From Deltaproteobacteria bacterium (GTDB taxonomy: Bacteria; Desulfobacterota; Desulfobacteria; Desulfobacterales; UBA2156): a stretch of DNA of 64,000 bases. Location of the stretch: positions 2,328 through 66,327 of the forward strand of contig JAFDGC010000002.1 in the NCBI GenBank assembly GCA_019309485.1, read 5' to 3'. The number at the start of each line of letters is the position of its first letter. Positions within the stretch are counted from its first letter, which is position 1. This document shows positions 4,911 to 13,561 of this stretch, in pieces. The translations under genes were made by a program, and so were the position numbers. The notes beneath the pieces were generated by a model. That model had not been told where the DNA came from and searched no databases. It saw only the letters and a program-made list of their open reading frames with translations.

Positions 4911-6445
<1,535 letters not shown>

Positions 6446-6449
<4 letters not shown>

Positions 6450-8080
6450 GATTTTTCTCCTTGATAGGGTACGCCGCTTCCGTTCGCCGGCGAAACAGCG
6501 GAAAGCTTGTACTGAAAGCTGTCCTCCAGGGCCTTCCAGCTGGCCTCGATGATGTCTTTGGAGACACCGATGGTGCTCCAGATATGATCCCGGTCTCGGG
6601 AATCGATGAGGACGCGGACCTTCGATGCGGTGCCTTCCCGGCCGTCGATGACGCGCACCTTGAAATCCACCAGGTGCATGCCGTCGATCTCCGGGAAGAA
6701 CGTTTGCAAGGCCTTGCGCAGGGCGTTGTCGAGGGCGCTCACGGGACCGTCTCCCTCCGCGGCGGTGATCTCCTGTTTTCCGCCCACCGAAATCTTGATG
6801 GTGGCGTGTGCGGAACACGGTGCATCCCGGTTTTTTTCGATGGTCACCCGAAACGATTCCAGCTCAAACAACGGTCGGAACTGCTCCGTCAACTTCTGGA
6901 CCAGGATCCGAAAAGAGCCTTCCGCCGCATCGAACTCGTAGCCCTCCTGCTCCATTTCCTTGATCTTTGAGACGATTTTCCGGCTGTCGAATCCATTTCC
7001 CCCCAGATCGATCCCCAGTTCTTTCGCCTTGTATTCGATGTTGCTCTTTCCCGAAAGGTCCGAGACCAATACCCGCCGCTGGTTTCCCACGAGTTGTGGA
7101 TCGATGTGCTCGTAGGCGCGGGGATTTTTGGCCACGGCGCTGACATGGATGCCGCCCTTGTGGGCGAAGGCGCTCCTTCCCACGAAGGGACGGCTGTTGA
7201 GGGGGACGATGTTGGCCATTTCGCTTACGAAGCGGGATAACCGTTTGAGTCGCGTCAGGTTTTCAACGGGAACGCAGGGATAATGCATTTTAAGGGCCAA
7301 GACAGGGATGAGGGAGACCAGATCCGCGTTTCCGCAACGTTCCCCGTATCCGTTGATGGTTCCCTGGACCAAGGTGGCCCCCGCCCGTACCGCCGCAAGC
7401 GCGTTGGCCACGGCTAAACCGCAGTCGTTGTGGGTATGGATGCCCAGGATGAACGTATCTTCTGAAACGATCGGGCATTTTTCCGAAAGGCGGCAGCGCA
7501 CCTCGTGGATCACGGCCTCGATCTCGTGGGGAAGGGTGCCGCCGTTGGTGTCGCACAACACCAGGCGCCTTGCTCCCCCCTCCACGGCGGCAAAGAGCGT
7601 TTCCAGGGCATAATCGGGATTGTCTTTGTATCCGTCGAAAAAATGCTCGGCGTCGTAGATGATCTCCCGGCCGGCTTCCGAAAGATATGCCGTGGTGTCC
7701 CGGATCATGGCCAGGTTTTCCTGGGGGGTGTTTTGCATCACCTCTTTGACATGCAGGGTCCAGCTTTTTCCAAAGACGGCGACCACCGGTGTTCCGCTTT
7801 CCAGGAGCGCCTTTAAATTATCGTCGTCTTCGGGTCCGATTCCCGGCCGCCGCGTGGAACCGAAGGCCGTCAGCTTGGCGTTTTCAAAGCGGATCTCTTT
7901 GGCCATTTCGAAAAATTGCCGGTCCTTGGGGTTGGATCCGGGCCATCCGCCTTCGATGTAATGGATGCCGAATCGATCCAGGCTTTTGGCGATGGCCGCC
8001 TTGTCCGCGGCGGAAAAGTGGATGTTTTCCCCCTGGGTGCCGTCCCGCAGGGTGGTATCGTACAAAAGGATCGGTCTCAT
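6446..8080 (-). CDS. cimA: citramalate synthase / LeuA-family (CimA-type)
   Basis: ILLYDTTLRDGTQGENIHFS, GIHTHNDCGLAVANALAAV; about 540 aa long form with a C-terminal regulatory domain, resembling the Geobacter-type CimA class. Confidence 0.78.
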
Positions 8081-8094
8081 CGGGTGCCTCACTT

Positions 8095-8125
8095 GGAAGC
8101 AGGATGGATGAAACGCCCTGCTTCC
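8095..8125 (-). other. 9-bp stem hairpin in the ilvC-cimA spacer
   Basis: GGAAGCAGG (8095-8103) pairs with CCTGCTTCC (8117-8125), 13-nt loop; no U-run follows on the minus strand. Confidence 0.45.
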
Positions 8126-8142
8126 ATCACGTCATAATCGGT

Positions 8143-9195
8143 TCATCGTTTCCGGTTTTCCGGTCTCAGGGCCCGCACGGCGGCTCCGGTCCTCCACATT
8201 TCGGAATCCCGGATGGCGGCAAGCTCTTTATTGAGTTGTTCCCGGTAGTCGGGACGGGAATTGGCCTCCAGGACCCGTTGGGTCTCTTTTCCGGAAACGA
8301 CGTTTTCATAAAGGGCGTCGAAGAACGGGGCCACGGCGTCCCGGAACCGCGGCGCCCAGTCGAGGGCCCCCCGCTGGGCCGTGGTGCTGCAGTTGCCGTA
8401 CATCCAGTCCATGCCGTTTTCCGCCACCAGGCGGATGAGACTCTGGGTGAGTTCCTCCACGGTCTCGTTGAAGGCCTCGCTGGGGCTGTGTCCGTTCTTT
8501 CGGAGCACGTTGTATTGGGCTTCCATGACGCCGGCGAGACAGCCCATCAACACGCCCCGCTCACCGGTGAGATCGCTGAAGACTTCCTTTTCAAAGGTGG
8601 TGGGGAAAAGGTATCCGGACCCGATGGCGATGCCAAGGGCAAGAGCTCGCGCTTCGGCGTTTCCCGTGTGATCCTGGAAAACCGCGAAGCTGGAGTTGAT
8701 CCCGGATCCGTTTAAAAAATTGGTCCGCACGGTGCGGCCGGAACCCTTGGGCGCCACCAGGATGACGTCGACATTTTCGGGGGGCACCACACCGGTCATG
8801 TCCCGGTAGGTAACGGCGAAGCCATGGGAAAAATAAAGGGCGTTGCCGGGTTCCAGGCAGGGCTTGATTTTGGGCCAAAGGGCCATCTGCCCGGCGTCGG
8901 ATAGGAGATACTGGAGGATGGTTCCTTTTCGGGCCGCCTCTTCAAGGTGAAAAAGGGTCTTCCCCGGGACAAAGCCGTCACTGACCGCCTTATCCCAGGA
9001 AGCGGTTCCTTCCCGTTGTCCCACGATGACCCGGATCCCGTTATCCCGCATGTTCAACGCCTGCCCCGGGCCCTGAACGCCGTAGCCCAGCACCGCCACG
9101 GTTTCGTCTTCCAGGACTTCCCGGGCCTTTTCCATTGAAAACTCTTCTGCGGTGATCACCTCTTCCACGGTGCCGCCAAAATCGATTCTTGCCAT
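8143..9195 (-). CDS. ilvC: ketol-acid reductoisomerase
   Basis: VAVLGYGVQGPGQALNMRDNG Rossmann motif and class I KARI length when started at ATG 9195. Confidence 0.92.
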   Translation of the reverse strand: MARIDFGGTVEEVITAEEFSMEKAREVLEDETVAVLGYGVQGPGQALNMRDNGIRVIVGQREGTASWDKAVSDGFVPGKTLFHLEEAARKGTILQYLLSDAGQMALWPKIKPCLEPGNALYFSHGFAVTYRDMTGVVPPENVDVILVAPKGSGRTVRTNFLNGSGINSSFAVFQDHTGNAEARALALGIAIGSGYLFPTTFEKEVFSDLTGERGVLMGCLAGVMEAQYNVLRKNGHSPSEAFNETVEELTQSLIRLVAENGMDWMYGNCSTTAQRGALDWAPRFRDAVAPFFDALYENVVSGKETQRVLEANSRPDYREQLNKELAAIRDSEMWRTGAAVRALRPENRKR

Positions 9196-9279
9196 GCGAT
9201 TGCTCCTTTTTGTGTTTTCTTCCTTTTTTATCGTTTTTTTGGGCAAAGGCCGCTGATCGCCGGGATTGATCCGGTAAGA

Positions 9280-9798
9280 TCAATCCGGTTCCCGGTACAA
9301 GGCGATGGATCCTGTCCGGGCGATTTTTTTGATCCCCATCGGTTTGAGGAGGCTGATCAGCGCTTCCATTTTTCCCCGATCCCCGGTGGCCTCGATGATG
9401 TAATACTGGGGACCCACGTCCACGATCTTGCACCGGAAAATGTCCGCCAGTCGCAGGATCTCGTCCCGGCTTTCCCGCTTGGCCCGGATGCAGATGAGGG
9501 CCATTTCCCGTTTTACCGCCCGGGGACCCGTCATATCCCGGAGCTTGATCACATTGATGAGCTTCCGTAACTGCTTTTCGATCTGTTCCAGGACCAGGCT
9601 GTTGGCCTGGGTGACGATGGTGATCCGGGACACGGCTGGGTCGATGGTTTCAGCGACGCACAGGCTGTCGATGTTGAACCCCTTCCCGCTGAACAGACCC
9701 ACCACACGGGAAAGGACGCCGGGTTTGTTATCCACCAGCATGGTGAGGATGTGCTTTTCTTCGGTTTCGATCATAGCGATGTTTTCCTTTGCCTGCAT
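9280..9798 (-). CDS. ilvN: acetolactate synthase small (regulatory) subunit
   Basis: ACT domain HILTMLVDNKPGVLSRVVGLFSGKGFNIDSL; ATG abuts the ilvB stop (TAAATG). Confidence 0.9.
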   Translation of the reverse strand: MQAKENIAMIETEEKHILTMLVDNKPGVLSRVVGLFSGKGFNIDSLCVAETIDPAVSRITIVTQANSLVLEQIEKQLRKLINVIKLRDMTGPRAVKREMALICIRAKRESRDEILRLADIFRCKIVDVGPQYYIIEATGDRGKMEALISLLKPMGIKKIARTGSIALYREPD

Positions 9799-11490
9799 TT
9801 AAGCCAGCAGCATTTCGGTGATGGGTGCGCCGGCGGGGACCATGGGATAGACACATTCTTCCTTTTCCACCCGGAAATCCATGATCACCGGGCCGGGGGT
9901 TTCCAACCCTTTTCGCAGCACCGGTTCCACCTCTGAAGGGCGTTCGGCCCGGAGGCCGACGGCGCCGTAAGCTTGGGCCAAAAGGACGAAATCCGGGGCG
10001 CAATTCATGCACGTGGCCGCGTATCGTCTGTCATAGAAAAGCTGTTGCCACTGGCGCACCATACCCAGGTAGCCGTTGTTCAGGATCACCACCTTCACCG
10101 GCAGGCCGTGCTCCACGGCCGTGGCCATTTCCTGGATGTTCATCTGGATACTCCCGTCCCCGGCCACGTCCACCACCGGCTTGCCGGGGAACGCGGCCTG
10201 GGCGCCGATGGCCGCCGGGAGCCCGAAACCCATGGTCCCCAATCCGCCCGAAGAAAGAAAGTGCCCCGGTTTTTCGAAGTGATAGTACTGGGCGGTCCAC
10301 ATCTGATTCTGCCCCACCTCAGTGGTGATCAGCGCCTTGCCGTTGGTGAGCCGATACAGACAATCGATAACGTATTGGGGCTTGATGGACCCTTCGGGGT
10401 TTTGATCGTAAGCCAGCTTGTACGCCCGCCTCCATTCCTCGATCTGCCGGAGCCAGGGGTTGCGTTTGGCTTCAAGGTCCCCCAGGTCCGCTTCATCGAT
10501 CATACGGTTGAGGTGCTGCAGGCTGATCCGGCAATCGCCGACCACGGGGACCGCCACGGTGACATTTTTCCGGATACTCGTGGGGTCGATATCAATGTGC
10601 ACGATTTTGGCCTGGGCCGCGAAACAATCCGTCTTGCCGGTGACCCGGTCGTCGAAGCGGACGCCGATGCCGATCAGGACGTCACAAGCCGCCGTGGCCA
10701 TGTTGGCCCGGTAAGTGCCGTGCATTCCGATCATCCCCAGGCTCAACGGATCGTTGCCGGGAAAGGCCCCCAGTCCCATGAGAGACATGGTTACGGGGAT
10801 CCGGATCTTTCGGGCGAAGGTCGTCAGTTCCGCCGAGGCTTTGGAAAGGATCACCCCCCCGCCGGCGAAGATCATGGGCCGGTGGGCCTCTTTGACCAGC
10901 TTCATCACCTTTTTGAGCTGTTTCGTATTTGGCTCATACGTGGGGCTGTAAGAATTGATGGACACCTTCTCGATGGGCTTGTAGTCCGTCTTTGCAACGG
11001 AGACGTTTTTGGGGATGTCCACCAGGACCGGCCCGGGTCTCCCGGACCGGGCGATGTAAAAGGCTTCCTTGAGAATCCGGGCCAAGTCTTCCACGCGGGT
11101 GACGAGATAATTATGCTTGGTGCAGGGGCGGGTGATCCCCACAATGTCGACTTCCTGGAAGGCATCATTTCCGATCAGATGGGTGGGGACCTGTCCGGTC
11201 AACACCACCAGCGGAATGGAATCCATGTAGGCGGTGGCCACACCCGTGACCGTGTTGGTGGCTCCGGGCCCGGAGGTGACAAGACAAACCCCCGTCTTTC
11301 CCGAGGCCCGTGCATAGCCGTCAGCGGCATGAACGGCGCCCTGTTCATGGCGGACCAGGATATGCCGGATGTCGGTCTTGGCCAGTTCGTCGTAGATATC
11401 GATGACCGTTCCTCCGGGGAACCCGAAGATCGTATCGACCCTTTCTTCCTGGAGCACTTTCATGAGAATCTGTGCACCGTTGAGTTTCAT
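9799..11490 (-). CDS. ilvB: acetolactate synthase large subunit (ThDP-dependent)
   Basis: [27 protein letters not shown]; ThDP motif [14 protein letters not shown]...NNGYLGMV; start overlaps the ilvD stop (ATGA). Confidence 0.93.
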
Positions 11491-13181
11491 AAAATCGCCC
11501 CTTCCTTTCGTGCCGGTGATTTGACGATGGCGCCGGCCGCAGCCGAGGACACCATTTTGGCGTACCGGGCCAGATACCCTTTGTCGATTTTCAAAGCGGG
11601 TGCTTTCCAGCGGGATCTGCGCTGCTGCAGAACCTCTTCCGGGACCTGCAGGTCGACCCTTTTACCCGGAATATCGATGCGGATGGGGTCCCCTTCTTCC
11701 ACGAGGGCGATGGGACCGCCCTGCATGGCCTCCGGGGAGATATGGCCCACGGCGGCGCCCCGGGTGGCGCCGGAAAATCGGCCGTCCGTCAACAGGGCCA
11801 CGCGGGCGTCCAGTTTCATTCCGGCGATGGCGGAGGTGGGGGTCAGCATCTCCCGCATGCCGGGCCCGCCCACGGGGCCTTCATACCGGATGACGACCAC
11901 GTCTTTTTCCCTGATTTTTCCGTTCAAGATGGCCTCTGTGGCTTCTTCTTCCGAGTCAAAGACCCGGGCCGGGCCTTCGTGTACCTGCATTGTTTCGGAG
12001 ACCGCCGACTGTTTGACCACGCACCCTTCCGGCGCCAGGTTGCCGAACAGGACCGCGAGTCCGCCCTTTAAATGATACGGTTGATTCAGAGGCCGGATGA
12101 CGTCCGCGTCGAGAACCCTGGCCGATGTCAGATTTTCGGAGACACTTTTTCCCGTTACGGTAAGGGTATCGGGAAAAAGCACACCGGCTTCAGATAGTCT
12201 TTTCATGACCCCGGGGATCCCTCCGGCCCGGTCCAGGTCCTCCAGGTGATGTTTTCCGGCAGGACTCATGGAGCATAAGTGGGGGGCGGTTTCGCTGACG
12301 GTGTTGATCCGATCCAGATCCATGGGGATGCCGGCCTCGTGGGCAATGGCGGTCAGGTGGAGGACGGTGTTGGTGGAGCATCCCAGGGCCATGTCCACGG
12401 CCAAAGCATTGTGGAACGCCTTTTCCGTCAGGATGTCCCGGGGGCGAATCCCTTCTTCAATGAGTCCCACAATCCGCATTCCGGAAGCTTTGGCCAGGCG
12501 GATCCGGGCGGCCATCACCGCCGGGATGGTTCCGTTTCCGGGGAGGGCTAGACCCACGGCTTCGGTCAGGCAGTTCATGGAGTTGGCGGTGAACATGCCG
12601 GCACAAGAGCCGCAGGTGGGGCACGCCGCGTCCTCCACGGCGTCCAGCTGGGCTTCCGTCAAGGTATTGCCCCGTACGGCGCCCACGGATTCGAAGACCG
12701 TGACCAGGCTGATTTTTTCCCCTGTTTCGGGGTGGATGCCGGCGAGCATGGGCCCCCCGCTGATCACGATCGCCGGAAGGTCAAGGCGGGCCGCGGCCAT
12801 GAGCATGCCGGGGATGATCTTGTCGCAGTTGGGGACCAGGACCAGGGCGTCAAAGGCATGGGAAAGGGCCATGACTTCGATGGAATCGGCGATGAGTTCC
12901 CGGCTGGCCAGGGAATATTTCATCCCCACATGGTTCATGGCGAGGCCGTCGCACACCCCGATGACGCCGAATTCCACGGGCGTCCCCCCCGCCATGTAGA
13001 TTCCGGCTTTCACCGCATCAACGATCTTGTCGAGGTGGGTGTGGCCGGGGATGATGGTATTATAGGAATTGGCGATGCCCACCAGGGGGCGATTCAATTC
13101 TTCGGGGGTATACCCCATGGCTTTGAAGAGGCTCCGATGGGGGGCCCGCTCGATCCCTGCTTTCACCTGGTCGCTCTTCAT
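11487..13181 (-). CDS. ilvD: dihydroxy-acid dehydratase
   Basis: [26 protein letters not shown] and [16 protein letters not shown] motifs; AAGGAG RBS before ATG 13181. Confidence 0.93.
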
Positions 13182-13212
13182 CGGTCGTTTCTCCTTGCGA
13201 TAAAATGAAATC

Positions 13213-13251
13213 AAAAAAAAATCCGTTACCGGCCAGGGGCGGGTAACGGAT
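13213..13251 (-). terminator. intrinsic terminator of the ilv leader (attenuator)
   Basis: On the minus strand, AAUCCGUUACC...GGUAACGGAUU (10-11 bp stem) is followed by a 9-U run. It ends about 30 nt before the ilvD start. Confidence 0.7.
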
Positions 13252-13274
13252 TTTGAATTTGTATTTGTGTTGTG

Positions 13275-13373
13275 CTATGCCATTACCAACCCCTGTTCCT
13301 TCCGGCTGCCGATGAGGATTACCGGAAGGAGGAGAATAAGAATAAGGTTGATAATGGCGAACAACGGATTCAC
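13275..13373 (-). CDS. putative ilv/leu leader peptide (32 aa)
   Basis: AAGGA lies 7 nt before the GTG. It translates to MNPLFAIINLILILLLPVILIGSRKEQGLVMA, where 13 of the 15 residues at positions 7-21 are Ile/Leu/Val. Too short to appear in the ORF track. Confidence 0.6.
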   Translation of the reverse strand: MNPLFAIINLILILLLPVILIGSRKEQGLVMA

Positions 13374-13411
13374 AACGGATTCCTTAATCGAAAAATTCCT
13401 TTTATGGACTT

Positions 13412-13440
13412 CAGATAACAGCGGCAAAGGGTGGTGTCAA
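13412..13440 (-). promoter_or_regulatory. candidate sigma70-type promoter for the ilv leader
   Basis: Minus strand has TTGACA (13440-13435), a 17-nt spacer, then TATCTG (13417-12). The -10 element is weak. Confidence 0.3.
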
Positions 13441-13561
13441 GTGAAAAATGACGAAATCGCATGAACCCTTTTGTTCCCGCCGTCCTGCCCGCCCGCCGGG
13501 GGAACCAGTTGCCTTTTTTTTCCGAAAAGGCTTGGACGGCACCCGCAAAAAAAATTAGGAA

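Follow-up and report, generated by a model that had tools for sequence, protein, structure and literature searches.

The stretch analyzed here, 64,000 nt from a Deltaproteobacteria bacterium (contig JAFDGC010000002.1 of assembly GCA_019309485.1, positions 2,328 to 66,327; called the window in the following), carries the operon ilvD-ilvB-ilvN-ilvC-cimA-leuA, and we consider it highly probable, judging from sequence and predicted RNA folds, that this operon is controlled by a ribosome-mediated leader-peptide transcription attenuator located in the gap between topA and ilvD. The element appears to be a genuine conserved attenuator whose kind is well known and whose sequence family is new. It would place the whole isoleucine, leucine and valine (Ile/Leu/Val, ILV) pathway, including the citramalate route to isoleucine, under one switch of the classic attenuation type in a Desulfobacterales-like lineage. 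An initial annotation of the window had proposed that the 380-nt gap (topA stop 13564-13562, ilvD ATG 13181) contains a promoter, a short ILV-rich open reading frame (ORF), a pairing segment at its end (named R2 here) and a terminator, and all four were confirmed in the sequence almost to the base. Coordinates of the leader elements, the ilv operon and topA refer to the minus strand of the window throughout and are collected in Table 1.

The leader ORF and its predicted alternative RNA folds

The leader ORF is preceded by the Shine–Dalgarno (SD) sequence AAGGA and opens with GTG, and every count given for it earlier holds: the frame has 32 codons, 16 of its 32 residues are ILV (6 Ile, 8 Leu and 2 Val), and 13 of these 16 fall within the 15 positions 7-21. 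Ile, Leu and Val are the products of the pathway encoded by the downstream operon, and this enrichment of end-product codons in the window recurs among the related leaders described below, all of which are ILV-rich. In 3000 dinucleotide-preserving shuffles of the gap, 13 ILV residues within 15 positions were never reached, the shuffle maximum being 10. The choice of synonymous codons also differs from that of eight neighbouring genes: CTG is used at none of the eight Leu positions (41% in the neighbours), GTA at both Val positions (5%) and ATT at three of the six Ile positions (11%). This avoidance of major codons is consistent with a heightened sensitivity to tRNA charging; alternatively, the minor codons could result from constraints of RNA structure and AT-richness. 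The AAGGA-GTG start signal of the window has its counterpart in ATG-initiated ORFs at the same place in 11 relatives, and the N-terminus of the window peptide resembles that of one of these, L089 (MKNLFAINNL).

Upstream of the ORF the sequence TTGACA-17-TATCTG had been described as a weak promoter-like site. The site itself is present; however, the attribute ‘weak’ does not fit, because a TG in front of the -10 hexamer makes this an extended -10 element. Transcription would presumably start at this promoter. Among the 11 relatives of the same sequence family, 8 have a perfect TTGACA 50-75 nt upstream of the leader start, and one is also present ahead of the divergent leader L076; if TTGACT in L006 and L007 is included, a -35 hexamer is found in 10 of the 11, with none in L019. 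By eye, most relatives also show a TG one base before a -10 hexamer that starts with TA, at the same spacing. A simple promoter and terminator scanner detected neither the promoter nor the terminator of the window, owing to its hexamer and loop-length rules; in the case of the terminator the most likely cause is an internal C·C mismatch, which makes the ungapped loop longer than 8 nt.

The terminator is present as initially proposed, with a hairpin of -22.7 kcal/mol and a run of nine U. Two details had to be corrected. The nine U had been counted in addition to the stem, but two of them are already used by the pairing of AAUCCGUUACC with GGUAACGGAUU, and the run ends closer to ilvD than stated, at 16 nt from its ribosome-binding site (RBS) AAGGAG instead of about 30 nt, and at 31 nt from the ATG. 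A single copy of the terminator pattern is present in the 64-kb window as compared with 0 expected; a window-wide terminator scan was too permissive to be useful. Its 5′ arm (R3), which pairs with R4 in the terminator, can alternatively pair with R2 at 13 of 14 positions, again as stated in the initial annotation, through 11 Watson–Crick and 2 G-U pairs, the remaining position being a U·C mismatch.

Two further elements had been omitted, namely a protector strand within the ORF (R1) that pairs with R2, and a hairpin (P1) located between the two. Together they complete the classic four-segment design with 1:2, 2:3 and 3:4 pairings. The 216-nt leader folds with -77.5 kcal/mol, as compared with -47.2 ± 4.3 kcal/mol for shuffled sequences (z = -7.1), and in its minimum free energy (MFE) structure R2 is paired with R1 over all 14 positions and not with R3, such that R1:R2 encloses P1. 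The R1:R2 duplex amounts to -19.0 kcal/mol (-11.2 ± 2.3 kcal/mol in codon shuffles) and P1 to -18.8 kcal/mol (z = -4.8). For the three alternative states we calculated -38.0 kcal/mol for 1:2 including P1 (protector or pause), -19.4 kcal/mol for 2:3 (antiterminator) and -22.7 kcal/mol for 3:4 (terminator), so that they are predicted to be energetically comparable.

Table 1. Positions of the leader elements and of the genes of the operon in the window
Feature	Position	Strand	Description
-35 hexamer TTGACA	13435..13440	-	Read in the sequence; conserved in relatives
Extended -10, TGtTATCTG	13412..13420	-	Hexamer TATCTG 13417-13412, TG 13420-13419; 17-nt spacer from -35
Shine–Dalgarno AAGGA	13381..13385	-	Read in the sequence; 7 nt 5′ of GTG
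Tandem 11-nt repeat, AATCCGTTGTG / AATCCGTTGTT	13360..13381	-	Across SD and start codon; each copy is similar to the 5′ half of R3
Leader ORF, MNPLFAIINLILILLLPVILIGSRKEQGLVMA	13275..13373	-	GTG start 13373, 32 codons, TAG 13277-13275
R1, protector strand, CCAUUAUCAACCUU	13344..13357	-	Codons Ala6-Ile7-Ile8-Asn9-Leu10; pairs 14/14 with R2 in the MFE fold
P1 hairpin, UCCUUCCGGU...GCCGGAAGGA	13297..13330	-	Within the ORF, 10 bp; 5′ arm consists of Leu/Pro/Val codons
R2, GGGGUUGGUAAUGG	13280..13293	-	Spans the last leader codons; partner R1 or R3
R3, CCGUUACCCGCCCC	13236..13249	-	Antiterminator with R2 or terminator 5′ arm with R4
Intrinsic terminator	13213..13254	-	Hairpin 13254-13218, nine U 13221-13213
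ilvD with RBS	11487..13196	-	RBS AAGGAG 13196-13191, ATG 13181; TIGR00110, 793 bits; first gene of the operon
Operon remainder, ilvB to leuA	4911..11490	-	
ilvB	11490-9799	-	Family matches and public gene calls
ilvN	9774-9280	-	Family matches and public gene calls
ilvC	9195-8143	-	Family matches and public gene calls
cimA	8092-6446	-	TIGR00977, 734 bits
leuA	6449-4911	-	Family matches and public gene calls

The motif AATCCGTT occurs twice in tandem at the SD and start codon of the leader (13381-13374 and 13370-13363), as had been noted before. The additional suggestion that these copies pair with the 3′ arm of the terminator is possible in the window, where the repeat and the SD can form 12 bp with R4 and the U-tract (-15.3 kcal/mol), but a similar copy is seen by eye in only one of the 11 relatives (L002), and there it is single. 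In the full-length mRNA such a pairing could occlude the leader start.

Conservation and covariation in related ilvD loci

In order to assess conservation, we screened 160 ilvD loci, taken from listings of at least 600 stretches that under-sample the taxonomic range, for a small ILV-rich ORF with a terminator behind it. The arrangement was found in at least 14 distinct loci besides the window's own contigs. At least 11 further loci belong to the sequence family of the window (L001, L002, L003, L006, L007, L012, L019, L083, L084, L089 and L158) and derive from metagenome-assembled genomes labelled Desulfobacterales or from metagenome contigs without a label, and an alignment of their ilvD upstream regions, as proposed initially, showed that both the mini-ORF and the hairpins are conserved. 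L067 and L076 carry ILV leaders and terminators of unrelated sequence upstream of ilvD that follow the same logic, and L140 is a weak match with a hairpin of -9.4 kcal/mol located 186 nt upstream of ilvD. No such element was found in the other loci of the screen, among them loci with Syntrophales, Desulfatiglandales, Desulfovibrio and Bacillota labels. Among the matches listed, the closest IlvD proteins are 62-76% identical to that of the window; some of them come from metagenome-assembled genomes (MAGs) labelled Desulfobacterales (an order in the phylum Thermodesulfobacteriota), Desulfobacteraceae, Desulfosarcina or Desulfamplus, one from a MAG labelled only Proteobacteria, and the remaining ones from unlabelled metagenome contigs.

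Within the family the terminator CCGUUAUC...GAUAACGG is nearly invariant, and its core of CCGUUA and UAACGG is identical in all 12 loci, the window included. In the alignment of these 12 sequences 90% of the cells are paired in the terminator and 88% in the antiterminator, with changes on both sides at three pairs in each case, as compared with 23-54% and 26-60%, respectively, in shifted registers. Two columns of R3 (169 and 172) covary with their partners in both R2 and R4. At column 169 the window has C in R3 where the others have U, together with G instead of A in both R4 and R2; the exception is L012, which has C in R2. At column 172 a G, A or C in R3 is matched in R2 and R4 in most loci, the exceptions being L084 and L003 (G·G with R2) and L012 (G·G with R4). 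The best partner of R2 in the 5′ half of the ORF, i.e. R1, falls within codons 3-14 in 12 of 12 loci, and R1:R2 beats codon-shuffled controls (p < 0.06) in seven of them, being unconvincing in L002 and L012. A hairpin at the position of P1 is predicted for each of the 12 loci, its stem sequence differing between them (z from -1.1 to -6.8), and RNAalifold recovered P1 and the terminator with a compensatory change at 7 pairs.

These data bear on the possibility that the hairpin merely terminates the topA transcript and that the ILV-rich ORF is a chance frame in a T-rich spacer. The hairpin does lie downstream of topA on the same strand; however, it is more than 300 nt beyond the topA stop and behind a conserved promoter, the antiterminator pairing covaries, and the ILV density was not reached in any of the shuffles described above. 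Furthermore, only 3 of the 12 loci have a recognized topA upstream of the element. We attribute next to no probability to this explanation. Downstream, ilvB follows ilvD wherever the locus extends far enough, with ilvN present as well in 6 of the 11 relatives. Since the element always lies directly 5′ of ilvD, whatever gene precedes it, it appears to travel with ilvD.

The position of the stop codon is informative as well. It is found at alignment columns 121-123, 124-126 or 132-134, with R2 occupying columns 116-129, so that in each of the 12 loci it lies inside R2 or 3 nt beyond it, with R3 following after 28-42 nt. The R2 consensus GGGGYUGAUAAUGG is read in two frames: in one frame R2 itself provides UGA or UAA, and where the second frame runs across R2 the stop follows 3 nt after it, so that the leader ORF ends in or right after R2 in every locus. 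As the same block is read in two frames, its conservation is to be sought at the level of RNA and not of the peptide. This is difficult to reconcile with the idea that the ORF encodes a real small hydrophobic membrane peptide with a terminator of its own, next to ilvD only by coincidence, for which the hydrophobic composition, a length sufficient to span a membrane and the promoter and terminator on either side would speak. In addition to the two frames and three stop positions, the length of the peptide ranges from 26 to 33 residues, its sequence is variable apart from the bias in composition, its acidic C-terminal residues seem by eye to coincide with the 3′ arm of P1 (CGAGG), and the element always stands directly upstream of ilvD behind varied genes. 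The peptide also has no match to a Pfam or NCBIfam family, and we regard this explanation as very improbable.

A covariance model built from the alignment finds only the 12 training sequences and, as a weak match, the divergent L076 leader. It detected one copy and no second one in the 64-kb window; in the other loci analyzed here, the leader sites that it recovered were those upstream of ilvD only. A further match, in L009 (6539-6658, minus strand, 30.5 bits), was rejected as a leader, as it is an ordinary terminator (AACACCUUAUCAG...CUGGUAAGGUGUUUUU) after an unrelated 341-aa gene, which by its appearance we take to encode S-adenosylhomocysteine hydrolase. Alignment and model could serve as a seed for a new RNA family and as a basis for correcting the annotation of these loci.

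As for the two leaders of unrelated sequence, L067 is a ‘Deltaproteobacteria’ MAG in which the leader lies within ~150 nt upstream of ilvD (start 3001). L076 derives from a marine-biofilm bacterium, with the covariance-model match at 2886-2982; the end of its ORF carries GGAAGGGG, which is identical to the 3′ arm of its own terminator. This suggests that the design arose independently in these two other lineages or that it is very old.

The core CCGUUAUC...GAUAACGG is, as far as the alignment indicates, more conserved than hairpin formation alone requires. One explanation would be that a trans-acting factor, such as an RNA-binding protein, a small RNA (sRNA) or a small ligand, recognizes the near-invariant CCGUUAUCAGCCCC / GAUAACGG core and thereby sets the switch, in whole or in part, with translation being secondary. 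The identity of CCGUUA and UAACGG in 12 loci despite IlvD identities of only 62-76% is what such a factor would lead one to expect, as an ordinary stem would drift in a compensatory manner. However, the invariance can be attributed to a stacked constraint: R3 has to pair with both R2 and R4, and R2 has to pair with R1 as well. R1, moreover, holds the Ile codons AUU AUC, and R2 is either coding or stop-bearing. An invariant U of R2 stands opposite a G of R3 in 12 of 12 loci, and this U·G pair leaves R1 (CCAUU) free to differ from R3 (CCGUU). The pairing and coding constraints on R1, R2, R3 and R4 are a sufficient explanation of the invariance, for which a trans-acting factor is not needed. L076 and L067 also reach the same layout with unrelated sequences, none of these loci lacks the ILV-rich ORF, and the Rfam searches gave no match to a riboswitch, a T-box or any other family. 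The motif occurs once in the 64-kb window, where no regulon is visible. Control by a trans-acting factor, in whole or in part and with translation secondary, seems quite improbable. That the core is additionally the recognition site of a protein, sRNA or ligand, providing a second input to a ribosome-stalling switch, is a separate proposal that we consider unlikely. In a milder form the attenuator would be ‘codon-locked’, with the Ile codons of R1 (AUU AUC) fixing R2, R3 and R4 in turn and R2 providing stops in two frames. The family provides a clean natural case in which to see how the sequence of an attenuator can be frozen by constraints of coding and four-way pairing.

Ribosome positions and the proposed mechanism

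Returning to ribosome-mediated attenuation, we simulated the effect of the translating ribosome by masking a 31-nt footprint codon by codon. In the full-length leader, masking with codons 4-15 in the A-site resulted in an MFE structure with the antiterminator, and masking elsewhere in one with the terminator. The transcript ending before R4 was taken as the kinetically relevant one. In this transcript of the window, a ribosome on codons 1-15 leads to pairing of R3 with R2, and R3 is free without a ribosome, where R1:R2 prevails, or with a ribosome near the stop. The corresponding antiterminator forms before R4 in the 12 related loci and in L076, not clearly in L067, and is prevented by a footprint on the last 3-9 codons or the stop. 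The geometry of the leader and the simulations thus agree with what had been proposed initially, namely that a ribosome at the stop codon masks R2 and a stalled one leaves it free.

On this basis the following sequence of events can be proposed. Transcription would begin at the TTGACA / extended -10 promoter, and a ribosome would load at AAGGA-GTG and translate the 32-codon ORF, codons 7-21 of which are nearly all Ile, Leu or Val. With plentiful charged tRNAs for these amino acids the ribosome would reach the TAG, 3 nt past R2, and cover R2; the emerging R3 and R4 would then pair, and RNA polymerase would terminate at the U-run. If any of these tRNAs were scarce, the ribosome would stall within the ILV run, on R1 or on the 5′ arm of P1, and R2 would be free to capture R3 before R4 is made, so that no terminator forms and the operon is transcribed. 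If translation were absent, R1:R2 would close over P1 (-38 kcal/mol), R2 would be sequestered and termination would be expected. From the sequence we infer translation of the leader and its response to stalling; a role in pausing may be assigned to P1 or the 1:2 hairpin on the basis of the folds. As the peptide contains a mixture of Ile (6), Leu (8) and Val (2) codons, multivalent control is to be expected, which should suit an operon in which cimA and leuA are combined with the genes of the shared ilv enzymes.

Several observations weigh against this interpretation or restrict it. In the equilibrium fold of the full-length leader, stalls at codons 16-21 yield the terminator, because R1:R2 re-forms around the masked ribosome; we assume this to be sterically unrealistic for a ribosome at these codons. 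In most relatives the pre-R4 transcript already adopts the antiterminator as its MFE structure when no ribosome is present, and the protector state is accordingly well supported only in the window and in some of the loci. R1:R2 is no better than shuffled controls in L002 and L012, and several relatives lack a recognisable SD ahead of the leader ATG. The conservation analysis comprises 12 related sequences only, its covariation statistics take no account of phylogeny, and the majority of stem positions, being invariant, carry no information. The mechanism as a whole is deduced from sequence, predicted pairings, conservation and covariation.

Relation to known attenuators and to the operon

Leader-peptide attenuators are known for ilvGMEDA (ilvL), ilvBN (ivbL) and leu (leuL) of E. 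coli and Salmonella, with an ilvL peptide of 32 residues, and Pfam contains the leader-peptide families IlvGEDA_leader, IlvB_leader and Leu_leader. The element in the window shares with the enterobacterial ilv leaders an ILV-rich leader peptide of some 30 codons with predicted multivalent sensing of all three amino acids, the overlapping 1:2, 2:3 and 3:4 hairpins and an ilv biosynthetic operon directly downstream. However, there is no sequence relationship: an Rfam search for leader families gave none at threshold, the best being Phe_leader with 17.1 bits as compared with a cutoff of 55 bits (E = 7.3), and no relevant Pfam or NCBIfam match was obtained up to E = 10 for four leader peptides. 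More generally, Rfam 15 yielded nothing relevant in the window region at E ≤ 10 nor at gathering thresholds in 20 related loci, and a T-box was found neither in the window region at E ≤ 10 nor in the 20 relatives at the gathering threshold. The lineage of the window also is Desulfobacterales-like and not Enterobacterales, and ilvD-ilvBN-ilvC-cimA-leuA would be under one attenuator, as opposed to three in E. coli.

The initial annotation had described the logic as known from Gammaproteobacteria. This is too narrow, as ILV leader attenuators have been described or predicted elsewhere as well: in S. aureus upstream of ilvD (PMC5794164), in Corynebacterium, Leptospira and the ilvB-OMG group (PMC10272879) and in Actinobacteria (PMC1262725). 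The S. aureus ilvD leader encodes a 26-aa Ile/Leu-rich attenuator peptide (Kaiser et al. 2018, PMC5794164) and has genetic support from suppressor mutations in the terminator and the peptide (PMC5794164). As in the window, it lies directly upstream of ilvD, the first gene of a long ilv-leu operon, with a terminator between the peptide ORF and ilvD. In contrast to the element described here, whose stop lies in R2 or next to it and in which the terminator 5′ arm is the partner of R2, the S. aureus peptide ends 52 nt ahead of the terminator, and it is the poly-U tail that the antiterminator proposed there would sequester; S. aureus adds control by CodY, and the sequences are unrelated. The Corynebacterium ilvB-II upstream ORF (uORF)/ilvBNC attenuator, ilvB-OMG and the Leptospira ilvB motif (Narunsky et al. 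2023, PMC10272879; PMC11109978; PMC11857589) are likewise lineage-specific RNAs found by comparative genomics, in which a uORF rich in branched-chain amino acids, an antiterminator and a terminator precede ilv genes; these motifs precede ilvB, whereas the element described here precedes ilvD. No Rfam 15 family, including any of these motifs present there, matches the window or the 20 related loci. We found no such leader from Desulfobacterota or delta-proteobacteria in the searchable literature; an earlier prediction may nevertheless exist. The understanding of the attenuation mechanism itself is unchanged by this example, which will not surprise a specialist.

The genes behind the leader were assigned as listed in Table 1, with gene starts refined by public gene calls and one in-frame ATG; the citramalate synthase that the initial annotation had included in the operon is confirmed by the family match of cimA. 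As convergent genes on the plus strand follow leuA, the operon ends at leuA. Two Joint Genome Institute (JGI) metagenome contigs match the window, and the public annotation calls no gene or feature in the topA-ilvD gap. Upstream of the gap the gene order is dprA-topA. The topA stop is immediately followed by a T8 run and then by a palindrome of the form GCCUUUU...AAAAGGC (13534-13561, minus strand), without a clear canonical terminator there, so that some readthrough from topA into the leader may occur. Within the operon the leuA ATG (6449-6447) overlaps the cimA stop (6448-6446) as ATGA, and the start of ilvB (11490) gives a 4-nt ORF overlap with ilvD, whose stop ends at 11487, both on the minus strand; such overlaps are typical of translational coupling.

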